A DNA stretch of 64,000 nt, from NCBI GenBank assembly GCA_048940765.1, contig JBHLOG010000001.1, positions 6,806-70,805 on the forward strand. The letters run 5' to 3'. A program made the position numbers and the translations under genes. Position 1 is the first letter of the stretch. The number at the start of each line of letters is the position of its first letter. This document shows positions 26,684 to 51,667 of the stretch, in pieces. This DNA comes from Promethearchaeota archaeon. GTDB lineage: Archaea; Asgardarchaeota; Lokiarchaeia; Sigyniarchaeales; SOKP01. The notes under the pieces were generated by a model. The model did no database searches. It was not told the DNA's origin and saw nothing but the letters and a program-made list of their open reading frames with translations.

Positions 26684-28087
26684 TTAAAGTTGAGATTCAT
26701 CAATTACAGGCATTTCTTCTGAAGCTAAGTTTTTTTGAATTTCACTATTAGGCAATTCGTATTCTTTTAAATTTCCGTTCATAAATTCTTCGTAAGCTAA
26801 CAAATCAAAAAAACCATGACCACTAAAGTTAAATAAGATGACTTTCTTTTCATTGTTTTCTTTAGCTTTCAATGCTTGTTCAATCGTTTCTTTTATTGCA
26901 TGTGCAGTTTCTGGAGCAGGAAGTATTCCTTCAGCTTTTGCAAATTGGAGTCCAGCACTAATTACTTCTGTTTGATGATGCATAGTAGTTTTAACAATTC
27001 CATTATTATTTAAAATTGAAATAATGGGAGCCATTCCATGATATCTTAATCCTCCTGCATGGATTGGGCTGGGGATAAAAGTATGTCCTAAAGTATGCAT
27101 CTTCACAATAGGTCCTTTCATTGCAGAGTCACCGTAATCCCATCTATACTCTCCTTTTGTTACACTTGGACATGCTCGAGGTTCCACACCAATTAATTCC
27201 ATATCTGGATTTGTTCCGTCTAATTTATCTTTGACAAATGGAATCATCAAACCAGCAAAGTTCGAACCGCCTCCAATACAGCCAATTACTACATCTGCTT
27301 TTTCAATACCAGCTTTAGCTAGTTGAATTTTTGCCTCTTGTCCTACAATAGTTTGATGTAAAAGCACGAAATTAACTACACTTCCAAGAGAATATTTTAT
27401 TCTATCACTCCTCATACTATGTTCTAATGCTTCAGATATTGCAATTCCTAAACTCCCTGGATGTTCTTGATCTTTCTCCAAAAATTTTTTTCCAGAATCA
27501 GTTAGATTGGAAGGACTTGGATACACTTCAGCATTAAAAGCCCTCATTAAGATTTTTCTCCCTGGTTTTTGAAAATAGCTTGCTCTTACCATATATACAG
27601 TACATTTTAGATCATAGAGACTACATCCATATGCTAAGGCAGAACCCCATTGCCCAGCCCCTGTTTCTGTGACTAATTCTTCTGTTCCTTCTTTTTTTGC
27701 ATAATATGCTTGGGTTATAGCAGTATTAGGTTTATGTGACCCCGTAGGAGAACATGATTCATTTTTATAAAAAATTTTAATTTTATCTCCTTCTATATCT
27801 AACTCTTTCTCTAATCCCAATGCTCGATGAAGTGGACTCGGTCGATAAGTTTTTGCAAAAATTTCCCTTAATTCCTTTGGAATAGGAATAAGAGGTTCCA
27901 ATGAGACTTCTTGCATTACACATTCTCTAGGAAAAATAGCAAATGCCATTTCCGGTGGAGCCGGTTTTCCATCAATTGGATTTATTAAGGGCGTCATAGG
28001 GGAGGGTAAATCTGGCAAAATATTTACCCAATTTTTTGGAATCTCATTTGGTTCCAGTAAAATTCTTCCAGTAAAATGATCTACCAT
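26684..28087 (-). CDS. trpB2: TrpB2-type tryptophan synthase beta-like PLP enzyme (stand-alone)
   Basis: EIPKNWVNILPDLP N-terminus, PLP-lysine motif PTGSHKPNTA, GGGSNFAG glycine loop, 467 aa. No trpA nearby. Confidence 0.85.
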   Translation of the reverse strand: MVDHFTGRILLEPNEIPKNWVNILPDLPSPMTPLINPIDGKPAPPEMAFAIFPRECVMQEVSLEPLIPIPKELREIFAKTYRPSPLHRALGLEKELDIEGDKIKIFYKNESCSPTGSHKPNTAITQAYYAKKEGTEELVTETGAGQWGSALAYGCSLYDLKCTVYMVRASYFQKPGRKILMRAFNAEVYPSPSNLTDSGKKFLEKDQEHPGSLGIAISEALEHSMRSDRIKYSLGSVVNFVLLHQTIVGQEAKIQLAKAGIEKADVVIGCIGGGSNFAGLMIPFVKDKLDGTNPDMELIGVEPRACPSVTKGEYRWDYGDSAMKGPIVKMHTLGHTFIPSPIHAGGLRYHGMAPIISILNNNGIVKTTMHHQTEVISAGLQFAKAEGILPAPETAHAIKETIEQALKAKENNEKKVILFNFSGHGFFDLLAYEEFMNGNLKEYELPNSEIQKNLASEEMPVIDESQL

Positions 28088-28247
28088 TTTTTTTACCTTC
28101 TATATTTACTTTTTCACATCTTAAGACGTGTATCATTAAAAAATTGGAAATCAATATGATTAATGCCCATTTAGAAAGAGGATTTAATATTTTAAAGGAA
28201 AATATTAAAAAGAAAAAATAAATCTAAAAAAACCAATGCAGTTGGCT

Positions 28248-28298
28248 CTATTGCCAACACCAAGGCCACTGCCAAGATTGAATTCTTAGAGTTGCCAT
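28248..28298 (-). promoter_or_regulatory. candidate Trp-rich leader peptide ORF (MATLRIQSWQWPWCWQ) about 160 nt upstream of trpB2
   Basis: ATG 28298-28296, TAG 28250-28248. Four TGG codons at alternate positions. GC-rich patch in an AT-rich spacer. Overlapping alternative hairpins and a T7 tract follow. Confidence 0.5.
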
Positions 28299-28474
28299 AA
28301 TATTTAATAAATAGTTATCTGAAAATATTTAAACATTATATAGTAAATTCAAATAAAAATCTTTTGAAGTTTTCTTGAAATAATTTAAATATTTCAATTA
28401 TCTAAAAATTGCTATAAATGAAAAATTTGAATAAATTAAAGTAAAAGCACGATTTCCATAATTTATATTGTGGT

Positions 28475-29068
28475 TTGGATATGAGGATTTTTATCTCAGA
28501 TATCATTGTTAAGAAGGATAGATATGGTTCTGATTACTACTGGATAGTTGGTCAGCTTCGTTGTGGTAAAAGGGTTATTATTGAGGATGTCTATTTTAAC
28601 CTTCAAAAGTATATTGATCATCGAATTGAAATGTTATTATCTTTTATGAGATCTCCTTATTTAGAATTACAGATGGGGATTCATAATGAAATATTCTTAT
28701 CAGAAGAATACTATTCAGTGGAACTTATTGATGAGTTGTTAAATACAAAGGGAGTCATTTTAAGCGGGAAAGAGAAAATTATAATATTAACTGGTGAATA
28801 TATTGATTCCTATACTATTCCTGAAAAATGGAAGTCGTTAATACAGCGAAAATCTTTTAAAATGTTATTTAAAGACCCATCTGCTCTTAAGACTGAAGAT
28901 GGAACGTATCTTTTGTACCCTTTTCATTCAAGGAAGCGATTTCCAATTGAGTCAATCTCTCAAAGAGTCACCATGGCAGGTAGTCTCAGATTGGAAGCTT
29001 GGTGTCTGAATGGTGAAGAATCTTTGGTAAATAGCTTGGAAGATAGTATTGAAAGAAAATTAATGTAA
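28475..29068 (+). CDS. hypothetical protein
   Basis: 197-aa ORF (TTG, or ATG 2 codons later). No recognisable motif. Confidence 0.45.
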   Translation: MDMRIFISDIIVKKDRYGSDYYWIVGQLRCGKRVIIEDVYFNLQKYIDHRIEMLLSFMRSPYLELQMGIHNEIFLSEEYYSVELIDELLNTKGVILSGKEKIIILTGEYIDSYTIPEKWKSLIQRKSFKMLFKDPSALKTEDGTYLLYPFHSRKRFPIESISQRVTMAGSLRLEAWCLNGEESLVNSLEDSIERKLM

Positions 29069-43157: not shown

Positions 43158-44981
43158 TTATTTCAGTTTTAAAAATCTTAATTTTTGAATTAAATTGTTC
43201 TTAATTAGTTCAAGATGTTGAAAGTCATTATTCTCAATAGAGTGCCTTAAATTTAAAATTTCATTATAAATATCTTGATCTAGTAAATCTTCAATTAAAA
43301 TTCCTTGATCTATAAGTACTTTCCCTTCATTATAAATTAAAAGAATAATTTTAATCAAACCTAACATTTTTTTAACACTAGTGAAACTATCTATTTTATC
43401 AAATGCATTTTGATTTAAAAAACCATTTTTAATTAATTTCGCAATAAAGAGTATTAATTGTTGATTTTCTGGCAAATTTTTTTCTCCAATCAACTGAATA
43501 ATGTATTTTAGGTCTTGCTCTTTGGATAAAATCTCGTTTAATTGTTCTCGACATTCACTCCAGTCGATATCTATTTCTGGCCAATTAATATCGTTATCGT
43601 ACCACCAATTTTTTATTGATGAAGGATATGTTGAATAAGAATTCATCCAATTTATTGCAGGATAATGTTTTAAATAGGCTAAACTGGAGTCCAAAGCCCA
43701 AAACACTTGTACCAATCTCTTTGTTGTTGCTGTTACTGGTTCGCTAAAATCCCCCCCAGGTGGTGAAATTGTCCCAACAATTGTTAAAGATCCTCTTTTT
43801 TCTTTTCCTTTATAATCTACGCCATTTGTTTTTACAATACCAGCTCTTTCATAAAAACTTGATAGTTTTGAAGATAAATAAGCAGGATACCCTTCTTCTG
43901 CGGGCATTTCCTCTAATAATCCTGAAATTTCTCTTAAAGATTCAGCCCATCTTGATGTACTATCGGCTAAAACAGCAACATCATAACCCATATCTCGATA
44001 ATATTCTGCTATAGTAACTCCAGAAAATAAACTAGCTTCTCTAGCAGAAACAGGCATATTAGAAGTATTAGCTATTAAAATGATATGTTCTAATAAAGGT
44101 CGTCCTGTTTGAGGATTTATTATTTCAGAAAATTGCTTCAGAATATTAGCTATTTCATTCCCTGGTTCTCCACACCCTATATACACACAAACATCTACAT
44201 TACTCCACTTAGCTAAAGATTGTTGTATAACAGTTTTTCCAGTTCCAAATCCTCCTGGTATAGCAACTGTTCCCCCTTTTGCTATTGGAAATAGTAGATC
44301 TATAACGCGAATTCCAGTAATTAATGGTATTGTAGCATCTTCTTTTTTATTATAAGGGCGATTTACTGTCACTGGCCATTTTTGTAACATTGAAAATGAT
44401 TCTTCTGTTGAATTTATTCTCAACCTATAGATCTCATCTAAAATTGTATATTCTCCTTCTTTTGTGATAAATGAAAGAATTCCTGATTTATATGGAGGAA
44501 TCATAATCTTATGTTCTAAAAATGGGGTTTCTTGAACAAAACCAATAACATCTCCACAACTTACTTTTTCATTTAGCTTTTTTAATGGTGTAAAATACCA
44601 TTTTTTAGTTCTAGATAAAGGTGGAATTTTAAAACCTCGGGTTAATCTCCCAGAAGTGGTGTTTTCAAAAACCTTTTCTAATGGTCGCTGTATTCCATCA
44701 AAAACATGGGAGATTAAACCGGGAGCCAATTCCATTGAAAGAGGTTCGTTTAAACTTATAACTTTTTCATTCAATTTTACATTTGTTGTATTTTCAAAAC
44801 ACTGTGCAACGATATGATCAGGATATATTTGGATTACCTCTCCTAAAATCTCATGTTCTGATATTTTTATCAAATCATGAAGACGAATGTATTTTTCTAA
44901 CCCTTTAATTTCTATCAAGGAACCTATAATTGCTGAAATATAACCAGAGTTTATATCAATATTAGGCTCTATTGAATTCAT
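43158..44981 (-). CDS. atpA: A/V-type ATPase catalytic subunit A, second paralog (GER motif changed to GEP)
   Basis: Roughly two-thirds identical by eye to the 49823-51667 copy. Walker A GGFGTGKT is intact. GCGEPGNE (cca) versus GCGERGNE (cga) in copy 1. Confidence 0.85.
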   Translation of the reverse strand: MNSIEPNIDINSGYISAIIGSLIEIKGLEKYIRLHDLIKISEHEILGEVIQIYPDHIVAQCFENTTNVKLNEKVISLNEPLSMELAPGLISHVFDGIQRPLEKVFENTTSGRLTRGFKIPPLSRTKKWYFTPLKKLNEKVSCGDVIGFVQETPFLEHKIMIPPYKSGILSFITKEGEYTILDEIYRLRINSTEESFSMLQKWPVTVNRPYNKKEDATIPLITGIRVIDLLFPIAKGGTVAIPGGFGTGKTVIQQSLAKWSNVDVCVYIGCGEPGNEIANILKQFSEIINPQTGRPLLEHIILIANTSNMPVSAREASLFSGVTIAEYYRDMGYDVAVLADSTSRWAESLREISGLLEEMPAEEGYPAYLSSKLSSFYERAGIVKTNGVDYKGKEKRGSLTIVGTISPPGGDFSEPVTATTKRLVQVFWALDSSLAYLKHYPAINWMNSYSTYPSSIKNWWYDNDINWPEIDIDWSECREQLNEILSKEQDLKYIIQLIGEKNLPENQQLILFIAKLIKNGFLNQNAFDKIDSFTSVKKMLGLIKIILLIYNEGKVLIDQGILIEDLLDQDIYNEILNLRHSIENNDFQHLELIKNNLIQKLRFLKLK

Positions 44982-45005: not shown

Positions 45006-45494
45006 TTAATATTTTACTTGCGCATTACAAAAAGGACATTTTTTAACGAAATTTGGTATGATATTTCCACAATTTTCACATTTGTTGATTATTGGCTTGC
45101 GATATCTGAAGTCAAGATTAACTGATCTTGGAATTTTGGGCTGAAATTGTCGCATTTCTTCTTCATATTGAGTGGTTATGCTTTTTTTTTGATACTCTGA
45201 TGTAGATTTTCTTTTTCTATTTGGAAACATTCTTGCATAGAGAGATCTTTTATTTTTTCTTAGAAAAGGACTAATTGTAACTAATAAAATAAAAATGAAT
45301 AATAATGTAGTTATGAAAGGATGAATTCCTAGGTGAATTAAAAAAAAATAGAGATAAATCATTATACCTAAATAAATTGCGAATACCACTAACCAGATAA
45401 TAAGCTTTTTCTTAATTCTCCTCCTTTCAATTATTTCATTCGACATAAACAAATCTAATTCTAATAATATTTTATTTTCTCTTAAATTATTCAA
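45006..45494 (-). CDS. membrane protein (2-3 TM) with a C-terminal zinc ribbon, embedded in the ATPase operon
   Basis: CENCGNIIPNFVKKCPFC. Overlaps the atpI stop by 8 nt. Confidence 0.55.
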   Translation of the reverse strand: MNNLRENKILLELDLFMSNEIIERRRIKKKLIIWLVVFAIYLGIMIYLYFFLIHLGIHPFITTLLFIFILLVTISPFLRKNKRSLYARMFPNRKRKSTSEYQKKSITTQYEEEMRQFQPKIPRSVNLDFRYRKPIINKCENCGNIIPNFVKKCPFCNAQVKY

Positions 45495-47775
45495 ATCTTT
45501 GAGTTAGATAATTCTTAGCTTTATCTATCTCTTCCTTTATTGTTTTCATTTCAAACTCTTTTTCAATTTCTTCAGAAATAATATCTTTTTCAGCTACTCT
45601 TTTAAATTTGATATTAGAATAATTATTATCTAAATAGAAGGGAAAATATTCGATACCACCTCCTCGATAGAACTTGAAAAAGAATTCATAGAAATGAAGT
45701 CTTATGGCATTGATAAATGCTAACAAACCTTCTAAGAGGATTATAACTATATTCCCAAATACTGAACCAATAATATTTATTATCTGTACTCCAATATTCT
45801 CCCCTTGGATCAATGTAGACATTGCATTTATGGCATATAACAAAGCAATATGAGCTAATGCTAAAGCTAATATTCGGATATAAGATGCAACATTACTCAT
45901 AACAGATAAGAATGTATCAAATGTTTCAATTGATCCTTCACCTAATAATCCGGTATAAGATTCACTTTTTAAATATGAAATTTTGAGTATTTTTCCGACA
46001 GGTTTCAAAAACCATAAGAGAAGAGCAGGGATTAGAACTAATAAAATTGGATAGGGAAATTTCAACCAACCATATATATCAAATCCAAATCCAAAAATTA
46101 AAATAGTTCCTCCTATTAATAATAGGATTTTTATGAATGAATCACTGAACGCTAAGTATTTTCTATGTTGTTTCCAATAATTTAAAAATTGTATGATCCA
46201 TCCTAAAGTTATATGAAATACTCCAATATATATGGCAAAATAAAATACTGAGAGAATATTACCTAATGGATTATATAATGTAATATTGAGGAAAGGGATT
46301 GTTACTGGTTCCAAGTGGAAGTAAACTGTTCCAAATATCTCGATTTCATGTTTCCCAAAAAATTCTCCGTATAAAAATCCTATAAGTACAGATGCCCATC
46401 CACAAAGAAAGATAATCCAGCTTATATTTATAGCATTTTTACTTTTGTTTTTAAGTACTCTGGTACCAATGAATCCTGCTATAATTAAGATCAAACCATG
46501 CCCAATATCTCCAAACATTAAACCAAAAAGCAATGGAAAAGTGATAGCAATAATAGGAGTAGGATCTATTTCAGAATAAGTAGGAATTCCATACATTTTT
46601 GTGATTGTTTCAAAAGGTCTTACAAGAAAGAAATTTTTCATGATTGTAGGAGTATTTTCTCTTAAATCTTCTTTTCCTTCATCTTTTTTGTTTGATTCAG
46701 TTTCTTCAATGCTTTCTTTTATTATTGGTTTCCCAATCTTTTTTATTAATTTTTCTTTTTCCGGTAAAGATTCATAACTTGGGCGACCTTTTGATACATC
46801 TTGTGCTTCAATTGATATATTTTCTTTAAATATATCAAATAACTTTTGTTTAACTTCTTCTTTTTTTGATAATGGGATGAAAAATTTTAGAAATAATCGA
46901 TTTGAAGGTAATTTTTCAAATTGTTGCTCAACCCAATTATATTCCTCAATGTTTTGAACAATTTCGTTAATACCAGCAAATTTTAAGAGATTTTCTTTAG
47001 TAATTCGATTTTGTTCTTTTTTATATCTTGATATTAAATTTTCAATAAAATTAATTTCCTTATCTATTCTTAAAAAGTTAATTCCCTCACTTGTTAGATA
47101 TTTTTTTAAAATTGGAACTTCTTCGGAATGGATTAAACGAATTCTTCCATTAAATTCATCTTGTTTATCTTTTGGGTAGATTATATAAAAACAGATTCGA
47201 TCATCTGATATTTGAAAAGTTTCATAAACATTAGGGAATTCAGAAAAATCAAAAAGATTTTGCAAATTAGTTAAATTCTTAGAAAATGTTGTAAAAACTC
47301 GTAAATAAAAATGTCTTAGTTTTTGTAAATTTTCAGTGTTTAAATTTATTTTCTTTAAAAATTTATAACTAACTTTTATAGAATTAAGATTATCAACTTC
47401 TATTTTACCTTTCGATATATAAGTATTTAACTCTATAGCCCTATTTGTATAAAAATCTATTTCCTCCAAAAGACTATTTATTAGTTCATGAAAATCTTGA
47501 GTAACAAATTCTACTTTTTCATTTTTTTTAGTTTTTAAATTTTGGAGGTCATATTCACTAATTTCAAGTTTTTTAAATAAATTATTTAAATTTTTTCTCA
47601 AATCTTTAATTTTTTCTCGAAACGGATCTTTTTCTTCTGACCCTTTCTCATATTTGGATTTTTTCTTTGATTTTATATGAACAGCGTTCATATTAGATAA
47701 TTCCATTATAAATTGATCTTTATAATTCTGGTTTATTTCTGCTCTCATCAAACAAAACTCGTCTTTTTTGACCAT
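45487..47775 (-). CDS. atpI: A/V-type ATPase subunit I (a-subunit homolog)
   Basis: 762 aa. Cytoplasmic coiled N-half and a polytopic C-half with the conserved Arg region (ASYIRILALALAH). Confidence 0.85.
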   Translation of the reverse strand: MVKKDEFCLMRAEINQNYKDQFIMELSNMNAVHIKSKKKSKYEKGSEEKDPFREKIKDLRKNLNNLFKKLEISEYDLQNLKTKKNEKVEFVTQDFHELINSLLEEIDFYTNRAIELNTYISKGKIEVDNLNSIKVSYKFLKKINLNTENLQKLRHFYLRVFTTFSKNLTNLQNLFDFSEFPNVYETFQISDDRICFYIIYPKDKQDEFNGRIRLIHSEEVPILKKYLTSEGINFLRIDKEINFIENLISRYKKEQNRITKENLLKFAGINEIVQNIEEYNWVEQQFEKLPSNRLFLKFFIPLSKKEEVKQKLFDIFKENISIEAQDVSKGRPSYESLPEKEKLIKKIGKPIIKESIEETESNKKDEGKEDLRENTPTIMKNFFLVRPFETITKMYGIPTYSEIDPTPIIAITFPLLFGLMFGDIGHGLILIIAGFIGTRVLKNKSKNAINISWIIFLCGWASVLIGFLYGEFFGKHEIEIFGTVYFHLEPVTIPFLNITLYNPLGNILSVFYFAIYIGVFHITLGWIIQFLNYWKQHRKYLAFSDSFIKILLLIGGTILIFGFGFDIYGWLKFPYPILLVLIPALLLWFLKPVGKILKISYLKSESYTGLLGEGSIETFDTFLSVMSNVASYIRILALALAHIALLYAINAMSTLIQGENIGVQIINIIGSVFGNIVIILLEGLLAFINAIRLHFYEFFFKFYRGGGIEYFPFYLDNNYSNIKFKRVAEKDIISEEIEKEFEMKTIKEEIDKAKNYLTQRFE

Positions 47776-48434: not shown

Positions 48435-49826
48435 TTACACCTTTACTTGAAAATATTTATCAATAAATTTTTGATGAATCCTAATTAATTGAGTTTGATT
48501 CAAATTAGATAAGACATCCCAGGCAATATTTAATGTATCTTGAAAACTTCTGTTTTCATCTTCTTTTTGATTTAAGAATTTTTGTTCAAAATCATTCCCA
48601 AATTTTAAAATGTTTTTTTGTTCGAAATTCAGACCATCTTCCCCTACAATTGAAATAAGATCTTTAACCTCCATATATTCTGAATAGGAAGCTAATAACT
48701 GCGAACTGACATCCGCATGGTCCTCTCTTGTTTTACCTTTTCCAATCGCATCCTTCATTAATCGAGATATTGAAGCTAAAACTTCAAACGGAGGATAAAT
48801 GCCTTTTTTATGCAACATTCGACTTAGAACTAATTGTCCTTCAGTAATATAACCTGTAGTATCAGGCACTGGATCAGTAATATCATCATTCTTCATTGTA
48901 AGAATTGGAATTTGAGTTATCGAACCTTTTTTTCCTTTGATTTTTCCTGTTCTTTCATAAATAGAGGCAAAATCGGAATAAATGTATCCAGGATAACCTT
49001 TTCTGCTTGGGATTTCTTCCTTCGCAGAACTAAGTTCTCTTAATGCTTCTGCATAATTAGTAATATCAATTAAGATGATAAGAACATGCATATCTTTTTC
49101 AAAAGCAAAATATTCTGCTGTTGTTAAAGCTACTCTGGGAATAATTAATCTTTCAATTATAGGGTCATCTGCAAAATTAATGAAAGAAATAATATTTTGA
49201 AGTGTTCCACTTTCTTGAAAACGGTTCATAAAATAAATTGCCTCATCTTGAATAATTCCAATACCACAAAAAATAATTACAAATGGTTCTTCTGAAGTAA
49301 CTCTTGATTGTGTTGTTATTTGAGCGGCTAACTTATTATGTGGCATTCCTTGTGCACTGAAAATGGGTAATTTTTGACCTCTAATCAAAGTAAACAATCC
49401 ATCAATTACAGATACACCTGTTTGTATAACATCAACCGGATATTCTCTTGCGAAAGGGTTGATAGGGCTTCCATTTATATCTTTCTGAACATCAATTAAA
49501 ATATCTGAATCTAAAATTGCTTTTGTTTTAATATCAATTGGAGCACCTAGTGAATTGAATGTCTGACCAAACATATCTTTTGAAATCTTTACCTTAAAAG
49601 TATCTTCAGTAAATGTTATTTCTGCATTTTCAGAGGATATACCAGTTGTATCTTCAAATACTTCAACAACAATTATATCCTCACTTAGTTTCACCACTTG
49701 CCCAGTACGCATCTTATTATCATCTGTTTTAACTTTCACAATCTCGCCATACTGGGCATCATGATCGTTTTTAAGAAATAAAAGTGGTCCAATGATTTGT
49801 TGAATTTTTTTATATATCACACTCAT
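48435..49826 (-). CDS. atpB: A/V-type ATPase subunit B
   Basis: 463 aa. The degenerate P-loop region and [18 protein letters not shown] motifs are typical of B subunits. ATGA overlap with atpA. Confidence 0.9.
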
Positions 49827-51667
49827 GATTTTTTAAATATTTCATGTGTTAATTTTAAGGATGCAATTTCTTTAAGAAATTTTTTTTTTAACTCTTCTAT
49901 TTTAACAAAATCTTTATTTGGAATAGTTTGTTTAATTCTTAAAATATTATTTATAGCTTTAAGGCTCTTAATATCTTCAATTAGAAATCCTTGTTTCAAT
50001 AATTCATTACCTTCTTTATACACTAGAAGAATTATCTTAATCATTCCTAAAAGCTTTTTAAAATCTGTATAATTATCTATATCATCAAATGCATTTTGGA
50101 TTAAAAATCCGTCTTTAATTAATCTTGCAATAAATATTGTTAATTGCTGGTCTTCTGGGAGATTTTCCTCACCAATAAGTTGTGTAATGTATTTTAATTC
50201 GTTTTCTTGGGAGAGAATTTCATTAACTTGCATTCGACAATCGAACCAATCAATATCCATTTCTGACCAATGAATATCTCTTTCTAACCACCACTCTGAT
50301 ATATAATCGGGGTAATTAGAATATGAATTCAACCAATTAATAGCTGGATAATGTTTTGAATATGCTAATCCTGCATCTAAAGCCCAAATCCCTTGAACAA
50401 AATTTTTTGTTGTCGCTGTTACCGGCTCGCTAAAGTCGCCAGCAGGAGGAGAAATTGAGCCAATTATTGTTAAAGATCCAATTCTATCTTTTCCAGATTC
50501 ATCTTTACCAATTAATTTAACGTTACCTGCTCTTTCGTAAAAACCAGATAGTTTAGACGGTAAATATGCGGGATATCCCTCTTCAGCTGGCATTTCTTCC
50601 AATAGTCCAGAGATTTCCCTTAAAGATTCAGCCCATCTTGAGGTACTATCCGCTAAAACCGCAACATCATAACCCATATCCCTGTAATATTCAGCGATAG
50701 TAACTCCTGAAAATATACTAGCTTCTCTTGCTGAAACTGGCATATTAGAAGTATTTGCAATTAAAATTATTCGGTCTAATAAAGATTGACCAGTTCTAGG
50801 ATCATTTAACTCTGAAAATTGCTTCAAAACATCAGCAATCTCATTTCCTCGTTCTCCGCACCCCACAAATACAATTATATCCGCATCACACCACTTCGCC
50901 AGAGATTGCTGGATTACTGTCTTACCGGTTCCAAATCCTCCTGGAACTCCAATTGTACCTCCTTTTGTGATTGGAAAAAGTAAATCTATTACTCTTATTC
51001 CTGTTATTAATGGTTCATTGGAAATATTTCTCTCTTTAAATGGTCGAGCTTTAGTTACTGGCCATTTTTGTAACATCGAAAATGAATGTTCCCGATTATT
51101 TATATTCAATTTATAAATTGTATCATTAACAATATAATCCCCCTCATCTACTATATAAGTTAATTTCCCTGCAATGTTTGGGGGAACCATTATTTTATGT
51201 TCTATTGATGGAGTCTCTTGAACAGTTCCAATTATATCTCCTCCAGTCACTATATCATCCTTCTTTTTCTTAGGAATAAAATGCCATTTCTTCGTTCTTG
51301 ATATAGAATCGATTTCTAATCCTCTTTCTAAGGCTCCATTCTTAAAAAGGTCAAATGCTCTTTGAAGGGGTCGTTGGATTCCATCAAAAATATTTCCTAA
51401 TAGTCCTGGGGCTAATTCCATTGAAAGAGGTTCATTTAAGCTGATAACTGTTTCTTTAATCCGTAAATTATTAGTATTTTCAAAGCATTGCGCAACTATA
51501 AAATCTTCATAGATCTGAATTACCTCTCCTAAAATCTTATGTTTAGTAATTTGAATTAAATCATGGAGTTTAATAGTATCTTCAAGCCCTTTAATGTTAA
51601 TTAAAGAACCATTTATACTCGAAATATAACCAAATTGGGAAGTGGTTTCAGAACTGAATTTGCTCAT
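49823..51667 (-). CDS. atpA: A/V-type ATPase catalytic subunit A
   Basis: GGFGTGKT Walker A, GCGERGNE, non-homologous insert region, 614 aa. Confidence 0.92.

Follow-up and report, generated by a model that had tools for sequence, protein, structure and literature searches.

A conserved leader with tryptophan codons upstream of trpB2 and trpD operons in Lokiarchaeia, a candidate for leader-peptide attenuation in archaea

Introduction

Attenuation by a leader peptide, which relies on the coupling of translation to transcription, is textbook knowledge for bacteria. To our knowledge it is not established in archaea, and a full-text literature search with partial journal coverage found no report of it in archaea or Asgard archaea. 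The question of whether it occurs there is raised by a stretch of 64,000 nucleotides (nt) from a Promethearchaeota archaeon (hereafter the window; positions given without a locus name refer to it). On its minus strand, a mini open reading frame (ORF) rich in tryptophan (Trp) codons lies 160 nt upstream of trpB2 and on the same strand. An original prediction, made from the letters of the window, had read this mini-ORF as an attenuator of the trpL type, with two mutually exclusive hairpins (stem A and stem B) and a run of seven U residues (U7) as terminator.

Comparison of the locus with its relatives suggests that Lokiarchaeia probably have a ribosome-mediated amino-acid attenuation of their own. 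A Trp leader of ~230 nt, made of a peptide and two RNA domains, would serve at least two units (trpB2 and trpDCFBA) and use a platform unlike the bacterial antiterminator/terminator pair. Four things were computed directly and are presented first: the conservation of the ORF and its Trp codons, the set of helices, the association with two Trp units and the enrichment of U-runs.

Conservation of the mini-ORF and its Trp codons

A scan of one genome per species gave 37 loci with TrpB2 identities of 68-93%, nearly all labelled Promethearchaeota (= Lokiarchaeia). Usable upstream regions were available for 35 of the 37. All 35 contain a mini-ORF at the aligned position. It is 13-23 codons long, mostly 16-17, starts with ATG (GTG in two loci) and contains 2-5 Trp codons, which form a W-x-W-x-W(-x-W) core close to the stop. 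Except in L031 (codon 16), the clade representatives have their first Trp at codon 8-11; except in the L020 group (8 codons), their stop follows 0-3 codons after the last Trp. Several codons of the rarest amino acid are packed within a few codons of the stop.

The mini-ORF of the window has the nucleotide sequence ATGGCAACTCTAAGAATTCAATCTTGGCAGTGGCCTTGGTGTTGGCAATAG. Reading of the minus strand confirmed four TGG in 16 codons at alternate positions, and the ORF was present where it had been placed, about 160 nt upstream of trpB2. The locally GC-rich patch that had been pointed out in the AT-rich spacer is an island of 42-45% GC between flanks of 10-18%. Within the 64 kb, TGGnnnTGGnnnTGG is confined to the leader (two overlapping matches vs 0.19 expected), and no other leader-like mini-ORF rich in one amino acid was found in the window.

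The N-terminal half of the leader peptide is variable (MATLRIQS, MVTEDILFC, MLTEKMTF and others). The x positions of the Trp core also vary (Q/R/H; P/Q/R/H/S; C/R/H/L/Q), and UGG is invariant. The Trp9 codon is invariant though it lies outside any conserved helix, and the middle G of the Trp11 codon is invariant though it faces a mismatch in helix P1 (see below). As UGG is kept at Trp9 and Trp11 despite the lack of pairing, selection acts on the codons and not on RNA pairing alone. From the start to the last Trp, no stop interrupts the Trp frame in 14 of 14 independent clades, compared with 5/14 and 7/14 for the other frames; chance would produce this with a probability of ~7e-6. The recurrence of the mini-ORF, the Trp codons and stem A in relatives is beyond chance.

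The central claim of the original prediction, a leader peptide with Trp codons ahead of a Trp-synthesis gene, has thereby held: ORF, frame, Trp codons and a hairpin across the stop are kept at 35/35 trpB2 loci, and the codons, whose conservation had been proposed as a check, are retained in all relatives. A Pro-rich mirror ORF on the plus strand (28236-28289) had been named as the other candidate for the expressed element. It has no conserved start and was rejected because a start codon is present in only a few relatives.

A protein search for distant TrpB2 homologues reached relatives of at least 74% identity only, a scope that excludes other archaeal phyla. At the one Bathyarchaeota locus (L038), trpB is part of an operon and is not directly preceded by a leader. 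Two loci carry a Lokiarchaeia-type trpB2 plus leader under bacterial labels, L017 (JAGMEL010000010.1, 'candidate division WOR-3 bacterium') and L024 (DATKTW010000128.1, 'Nanopelagicaceae bacterium'); they are probably mis-binned archaeal contigs.

The same leader at trpD operons

The leader also precedes trpD-C-F-B(-A) operons, at 5/5 distinct loci (L160, L161, L163, L165 and L167). A metagenome-wide scan with the 15-mer TGGCAGTGGCCTTGG was too unspecific, nearly all of its 120 matches being unrelated GC-rich DNA. Its useful matches were L084, a further trpB2 copy, and L052, which led to the trpD-operon leaders. The L052 leader encodes MPSEKLLGFRWQWPWRA followed by a stop codon, with a small ORF and then the start of a TrpD-like gene behind it. 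On the full contig L160 the order is leader, an ORF of 95 amino acids (aa), trpD-trpC-trpF-trpB, a flavodoxin-like gene and trpA. Four further trpD loci were chosen via Lokiarchaeia TrpD proteins on long contigs (L161/162, L163/164, L165/166 and L167/168). In all four, a leader rich in Trp precedes the first cistron by 145-186 nt; the peptides are MANEKIIPFRWHWSWRA, MATVEINPWSWQWPWRWR, MSIVKVAYFRWQWFWRA and MAIVKNFCWQWPWCWQ.

The trpD leaders carry a hairpin across the stop, an enclosing helix P0, a U-rich stretch and a P3/P4 domain, as the trpB2 leaders do. Across both contexts the leader ORF is always on the same strand as the genes and 133-186 nt upstream of them. The presence of one element ahead of two different Trp-pathway units, a regulon argument, in our view settles that the element is specific to tryptophan.

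The stretches fetched for these Lokiarchaeia trp operons (L160 1771-7734; L161, L163, L165 and L167) contain no trpE or trpG. A Flavodoxin_2/FMN_red gene stands between trpB and trpA in L160, and an EF-hand protein is encoded there in L167 and L168. In two operons the first cistron after the leader is an ORF of 81-95 aa without a Pfam match (L160 1482-1769; L165 3737-3982). The two proteins share the motif ..YM.G.EK...ARFI.. (by eye, from the translations), and this first-cistron protein could be a regulatory or RNA-binding candidate.

Domain I: helices around the mini-ORF

The positions of all features in the window are given in Table 1. The first domain of the leader RNA surrounds the mini-ORF. 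Helix P1 has the general form GG(C/U)(A/U)ACUG with CAGUGGCC (Gln-Trp-Pro codons), and its cells are paired at 100% in clade A and 80% in the other clades. Stem A, the pairing of GUUGGC with GCCAAC across the stop codon, exists as originally described and was found, with different sequences, in 18/19 clade representatives, the stop lying in the loop (13) or in the 3' arm (5). Its arms differ by lineage (GUUGGC/GCCAAC, GGCGUU/AACGCC, GGCAUU/AAUGCC, GCGCG/CGCGC, GUGUU/AACGC), and when cognate and non-cognate arms were compared, 29 of 5000 permutations reached the observed value. In the window the stem is extended outward by G28260-C28238, U28259.G28239 and GCC 28266-64 with GGU 28234-32. Outer stem A excludes P1 because both use GCC 28266-64, and this is the sole local pairing competition seen. 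The fold of 28200-28310 as a whole was not beyond chance when compared with shuffled sequences (z = -1.6 to -1.9).

Box X, the 3' strand of outer stem A, is directly followed in other lineages by the 3' strand of P0. P0 is a long-range helix around the whole ORF in most lineages; in the subclade of the window it is not evident. Among the strand pairs of P0 are AUGGUUUA/UAAACCAU, UAGUCC/GGACUA, GGUUUAG/CUAAACC, AUAUGAU/AUCAUAU and UUCUGA/UCAGAA. None of 5000 permutations of non-cognate strands reached the cognate value, the co-evolution scan gave z = -5.4, and RNAalifold found the helix independently, with compensatory changes at three pairs. Of its cells 86% are paired, vs 30-52% in slid controls.

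The 5' strand of P0 lies 10-30 nt upstream of the leader start codon. It covers a GG(U/A)UU motif, 12-14 nt before the start, that resembles the Shine-Dalgarno-like motif of trpB2. Since this strand is upstream of the start, transcripts of these lineages must begin further upstream and would not be leaderless, and judging by the sequences most lineages are probably of this kind. P0, once formed, would bury the leader's own ribosome-binding site, which fits a single, co-transcriptional round of translation. A TATA-like box about 30 nt upstream of the ATG had been described as fitting a leaderless transcript. The box is present and is kept in the closest relatives L001, L002 and L004, where it is a possible promoter of a near-leaderless transcript of the window's subclade. 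The leaderless reading does not extend to the family, in most lineages of which the P0 strand lies ahead of the start.

The strands of P1 and stem A contain Trp codons, and therefore a ribosome on these codons must melt both helices.

Stem B, U-runs and the terminator question

Stem B pairs GCCAA with UUGG(U). The comparison of energies that had been suggested favours stem A (core -9.2 kcal/mol, extended -13.5 kcal/mol) over the weak stem B (-3.4 kcal/mol). Stem B and U7 are both present in the window; as a terminator switch they are weak and confined to this genome. No counterpart of stem B was found in the 18 other clade representatives, U7 is not kept in L001-L014, and stem B plus U7 was rejected as a conserved terminator.

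A second U-run, 3' of U7, is the candidate archaeal termination signal listed in Table 1. After the leader, a T-run of at least 5 is present in 14/19 clades, compared with 41% of background intergenic windows (binomial p = 0.004). As read from the sequences, about half of the lineages have U4-U7 immediately after P0, and in the rest the U-run is 10-27 nt away. A terminator scan made no call at the leader. An alternative pairing of Box X/P0b with the 5' arm of P3 (z = -2.7) was dropped, as the paired nucleotides were inconsistent between sequences.

L012 lacks 24 nt that are present in its close relative L013 (~2870-2900). The T-run and the 5' arm of P2 are gone, which makes it a natural linker deletion variant.

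Domain II: P2-P3-P4

A second conserved RNA domain, which the original prediction had left out, occupies positions 28115-28209 of the minus strand, where it separates the leader ORF from the trpB2 ribosome-binding site. It is also found at L160 1360-1460 and in the equivalent regions of L161, L163, L165 and L167. Hairpin P2 shows a U-A to C-G change in L007 and L008 and is repeated in the trpD leaders L160 and L165. The two-part helix P3 occurs in all trpD-operon leaders examined. Its cells are paired at 92% in 31 sequences, vs 26-64% with slid partners; its strands co-evolve, with compensatory changes A-U to G-C, U-A to C-G and A-U to U-A. P3 is flanked by an invariant G and A, and the nucleotides at its apex are nearly invariant; the near-invariant unpaired bases comprise the flanking G.A, the apex UUG..U.C..U and a 3' GA.AC. 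No copy of the P3 motif beyond these leaders was found in the window or in the fetched loci. P4 has C-G to U-A and A-U to U-A changes plus G.U variants, and the hairpins of other clades at its position differ (CAUCA/UGAUG, CACC/GGUG, ACAUUUU/AAAAUGU). The substitution pattern, being tolerant of G.U pairs, argues that the helices function as RNA and not as DNA operators.

Rfam gave no match at the gathering threshold in the window and nothing relevant up to E = 10 in 28060-28360. With no Rfam match and no tRNA, a known RNA family or a tRNA-like gene in the GC-rich patch was rejected. P2-P3-P4 is a new structured RNA without an Rfam family; it may bind a ligand or a protein, serve as a second sensor or be the actual expression platform.

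Table 1. Features of the trpB2 leader region in the window
Feature	Positions	Strand	Remarks and basis
TATA-like TTTAAATATT	28324..28333	minus	-35 to -26 from leader ATG (~25 nt upstream); read from sequence
Leader mini-ORF, 16 codons + stop, MATLRIQSWQWPWCWQ	28248..28298	minus	ATG 28298-28296, TAG 28250-28248; homologous ORFs at 35/35 trpB2 and 5/5 trpD-operon loci
Four UGG (Trp) codons, codons 9, 11, 13 and 15	28254..28274	minus	28274-72, 28268-66, 28262-60, 28256-54; presumed sensing codons; sequence
P1, start-proximal GGC.ACU with AGU.GCC over Gln10-Trp11-Pro12 codons	28264..28296	minus	RNAalifold
Stem A, core GUUGGC 28258-53 with GCCAAC 28246-41	28232..28266	minus	stop codon in loop; folds, RNAalifold
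Box X, UGCAUUGG	28233..28240	minus	family consensus YCAWNGG; 3' strand of outer stem A; alignments, folds
U7 run	28226..28232	minus	abuts extended stem A; terminator-like geometry in this genome only; sequence, folds
U-run AUUUAUUUUUUC	28212..28223	minus	candidate archaeal termination signal; largely conserved across clade A in alignment
Hairpin P2, UUUAAUAUUUU / AAAAUAUUAAA	28183..28209	minus	co-evolution z = -4.8, 0/2000 permutations
Two-part helix P3, CAUUAA..AUUG-AUUUC-CAAU..UUAAUG	28133..28166	minus	RNAalifold
Hairpin P4, CACGUC UUAA GAUGUG	28115..28130	minus	RNAalifold; compensatory changes
A-rich stretch 28114-28104 and Shine-Dalgarno-like GAAGGU 28100-28095 of trpB2	28095..28114	minus	sequence, alignment
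trpB2, stand-alone, TrpB-like pyridoxal phosphate enzyme, 467 aa	26684..28087	minus	presumed regulated gene; ATG at 28087

Proposed mechanism

There is considerable confidence that the element is, in one form or another, a leader peptide that senses Trp. The fuller proposal, a cis-acting ribosome-mediated Trp sensor whose output is most likely read-through of a U-rich termination zone, stands a little better than even. The choice between termination and read-through, taken as a separate step, is the more tentative part, with somewhat less than an even chance of being right. Four points are inferred: translation of the mini-ORF, stalling of ribosomes at UGG, premature termination as the output, and the polarity of the response.

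The first ribosome would load and translate the mini-ORF during transcription of the leader. When charged tRNA-Trp is plentiful, it would pass the four UGG codons, terminate one codon later and depart. P1 and stem A could then fold, together with P0 in most lineages, which would hide the leader's ribosome-binding site. A polymerase in the U-rich stretch 20-50 nt further on would tend to terminate, and little trpB2 or trpDCFBA mRNA would be made. When charged tRNA-Trp is scarce, a ribosome stalled on UGG would hold P1, stem A and P0 open; termination in the U-rich zone would fail, and polymerase would continue through P2-P3-P4 into the gene. The decision would be kinetic and co-transcriptional, with Domain I folded beside the U-runs as the off state and Domain I held open as the on state. 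Closing of P0 or P1 over the initiation region would restrict translation to the first, co-transcriptional ribosome. As the stalled ribosome itself would be the anti-terminator, no separate antiterminator hairpin is needed. Transcription polarity has been described in archaea and attributed to FttA (PMC12548453), and since such polarity exists, translation can influence termination in archaea.

Several points weigh against this proposal. The window comes from an uncultured metagenome-assembled genome (MAG), and the case is built by computation on sequences. The conserved, mutually exclusive antiterminator and terminator hairpins of the original prediction did not appear: the co-evolution scan gave only P0, P2 and P3, and no conserved alternative pairing between the leader domain and the downstream domain was found. 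The enrichment of U-runs is modest because such runs are common in AT-rich DNA, and the gap between the last helix and the U-run ranges from 0 to ~27 nt. We know of no requirement for a hairpin in archaeal intrinsic termination. The kinetics are uncertain because, by bacterial geometry, a close-following ribosome would still cover the Trp codons when polymerase is at the first U-run. A trpB2 promoter between the U-run and P3 is conceivable and may exist. L031 is without stem A. In the subclade of L020, L023, L024 and L026 the ORF has only two Trp codons (e.g. MFAKINLSKCWHGLWRFKTLFQR), runs through stem A and ends in the 3' strand of P0. Finally, when the leader was masked as by a stalled ribosome, the predicted fold around the trpB2 ribosome-binding site did not change (mean change 0.00, 35 sequences).

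Alternative explanations

The masking result bears equally on the strongest rival, in which the same stalling at Trp codons acts after transcription, through the folding of P2-P3-P4, access to the ribosome-binding site of trpB2 or trpD, or mRNA stability, in the manner of ermC or of the leaderless poly-Cys small ORFs of mycobacteria. We regard this as unlikely, though it has more in its favour than the other rivals. Both locus types have kept Domain II, which stands immediately ahead of the Shine-Dalgarno-like motif, and bacterial attenuators that act on translation without terminators are known (10.1101/834739; PMC1262725). In many predicted single-sequence folds of this region the U-run 28223-28212 pairs with the A-rich stretch 28114-28104 beside the Shine-Dalgarno-like motif. 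This pairing has A/G variation opposite U, no cognate advantage and no covariation signal, and it was rejected as a conserved pairing. Moreover, the stall site and the ribosome-binding site, whose accessibility did not respond to masking, are ~100 nt apart, with RNA between them that folds independently; an equilibrium translational switch received no support. No co-evolving pairing between leader and ribosome-binding site was found, the d-l pair having p = 0.03 before correction for 66 tests. A translational attenuator of the ermC or mycobacterial Cys type is not supported, as neither masked folding nor the co-evolution scan gave a ribosome-binding site sequestered by the leader. A quite improbable alternative shifts the regulation to P2-P3-P4 itself, as a riboswitch-like aptamer or an operator RNA for a protein, with the mini-ORF as an accessory that, for example, keeps polymerase coupled or the RNA unfolded. 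The near-invariant unpaired bases of P3 and the compensatory stems are as expected of ligand- or protein-binding RNAs, and some operons encode the uncharacterised 81-95 aa protein right behind the leader. It leaves the UGG codons, the in-frame start and the nearby stop of every lineage unexplained, and the negative Rfam search of the window and of 28060-28360 also counts against it.

Two further explanations, both very improbable, dispense with the ribosome as the sensor in cis. UGG triplets, three to five of them with a regular 6-nt period ahead of Trp genes, could be a site for a Trp-activated RNA-binding protein, the reading frame being incidental; TRAP of Bacillus binds spaced triplet repeats. 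A TRAP-regulated trp leader has nine to eleven (G/U)AG repeats and requires no leader translation. The repeats here are UGG, number only 2-5 and are always part of an open frame that has both start and stop codon, and a TRAP-regulated leader was rejected. A start that is aligned and in frame, a frame open in 14/14 clades, a stop close behind and the invariance of Trp9 outside any conserved helix are equally at odds with a frame that is incidental. We know of no TRAP homologue in Asgard archaea, and no search aimed at one was made. The mini-ORF might instead encode a functional Trp-rich micropeptide, or belong to an independent small RNA, that is merely a neighbour of Trp genes. The W-x-W-P-W core is kept at the peptide level, and in bacteria both the peptides and the RNAs of trp leaders are reported to be capable of action in trans (PMC7298713, PMC7968998). 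Against a chance neighbourhood stand the constant strand and the distance of 133-186 nt from a Trp-synthesis gene in two gene contexts, and half of the peptide is free to vary. Action in trans would, besides, be compatible with attenuation in cis.

Gene context of trpB2 and other genes of the window

The product of trpB2 exceeds the curated cut-offs of NCBIfam NF009057 (637 bits), TIGR01415 (592 bits) and PRK12391 (TrpB-like). In relatives a GG(U/A) motif lies 8-13 nt 5' of the trpB2 ATG. The gene downstream of trpB2 is convergent and the gene upstream is divergent. The divergent neighbour of the leader is an ORF of 197 aa on the plus strand (28475-29068) without a Pfam or NCBIfam match; in the matching MAG contig (GCA_048937845.1) a gene of 195 aa is annotated at this position.

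The window is archaeal and also encodes RadA and subunits of an A-type ATPase. Two paralogous genes for A/V-type ATPase catalytic A-subunit-like proteins are located on the minus strand (43161-44981 and 49826-51667), and both carry ATP-synt_ab, ATP-synt_ab_Xtn and ATP-synt_VA_C. Between them lie the genes for subunits B (48438-49826) and I (45490-47775).

Implications

For control of amino-acid synthesis by a leader peptide in the bacterial manner, this leader is so far the best archaeal candidate. If the proposal holds, no attenuator with a leader peptide would have been described in Archaea before this one, and the closest prokaryotic relatives of eukaryotes would use co-transcriptional translation to control genes. 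The leader offers a testable case for crosstalk between ribosome and RNA polymerase in archaea, for regulated termination at U-runs or via FttA, and for amino-acid sensing in Asgard archaea. It also gives a search image for other amino-acid leaders in archaeal genomes.

Comparison with known systems

The leader of E. coli trpL has 14 codons. The element of the window resembles it in having a short same-strand leader ORF (16 codons here) ahead of Trp genes, Trp codons near the end with a stop a few codons on, codons embedded in helices, U-runs downstream, and a leader ribosome-binding site that later pairing buries. It differs in its archaeal host and in the order of the Trp codons, which alternate here (W-x-W-x-W-x-W) and are tandem in trpL. 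The Lokiarchaeia leader also has no conserved 2:3 antiterminator and 3:4 terminator and no conserved GC-rich hairpin directly before the U-run, and it has an extra conserved P2-P3-P4 domain and an enclosing helix P0. Among the marks of a trpL-type leader, the same-strand ORF and the cognate codons near its 3' end are found here, and the alternative hairpins are not; the GC-rich hairpin with a U-run may exist only locally, as extended stem A against U7 in the window. The resemblance to trpL on which the original prediction was built therefore stands for the leader-peptide sensor (35/35 trpB2 and 5/5 trpD loci) and falls for the switch made of stem B and U7.

In E. coli pyrBI the translating ribosome prevents formation of the terminator helix without a separate antiterminator, and UTP is sensed via polymerase pausing. 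The logic of the ribosome as antiterminator is the one proposed here; pyrBI differs in being bacterial and in sensing UTP, with no codon-specific stalling. A T-box riboswitch has a specifier loop in its Stem I and a T-box sequence that is conserved, binds tRNA and is represented in Rfam; such a riboswitch was rejected here, the Rfam search of the window having given no match and that of 28060-28360 nothing relevant.

E. coli TnaC is likewise a short Trp-containing leader peptide, reportedly with a ribosome held near the stop and factor-dependent termination as the output (PMC8429421). By analogy, archaeal FttA could be the counterpart of the termination factor of that system. TnaC is reported to sense free Trp via a conserved nascent peptide and to switch on a catabolic operon (PMC8429421). 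The Lokiarchaeia leader has several UGG codons, precedes biosynthetic genes and has a variable N-terminus, with only the W-x-W-x-W core conserved.

Leader ORFs of actinobacteria have runs of regulatory codons near the stop and serve several units per pathway, e.g. trpB1EDGC and trpB2A in C. diphtheriae (PMC1262725). The trp leaders of Corynebacterium and Streptomyces and the cys leaders of Mycobacterium share with the Lokiarchaeia leader the codon runs near the stop, and some of them are without a recognisable terminator (PMC1262725). The actinobacterial trp attenuators differ in their bacterial hosts and in their GC-rich terminator and antiterminator hairpins with poly-U, and they have no sequence similarity to the Lokiarchaeia leader. 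The leaderless poly-Cys small ORFs of mycobacteria form a 'ribulon', in which several loci of Cys metabolism are controlled via ribosome pausing and no terminator hairpin is needed (10.1101/834739). They too are short ORFs rich in one amino acid, leaderless there and possibly so in the window's subclade. The stalled ribosome of that system blocks a duplex that sequesters the ribosome-binding site, and no such duplex was found here. In its mode of action the element of Lokiarchaeia would resemble the leaders of bacterial trpL, of actinobacterial trp and of mycobacterial Cys genes, to whose families it does not belong.

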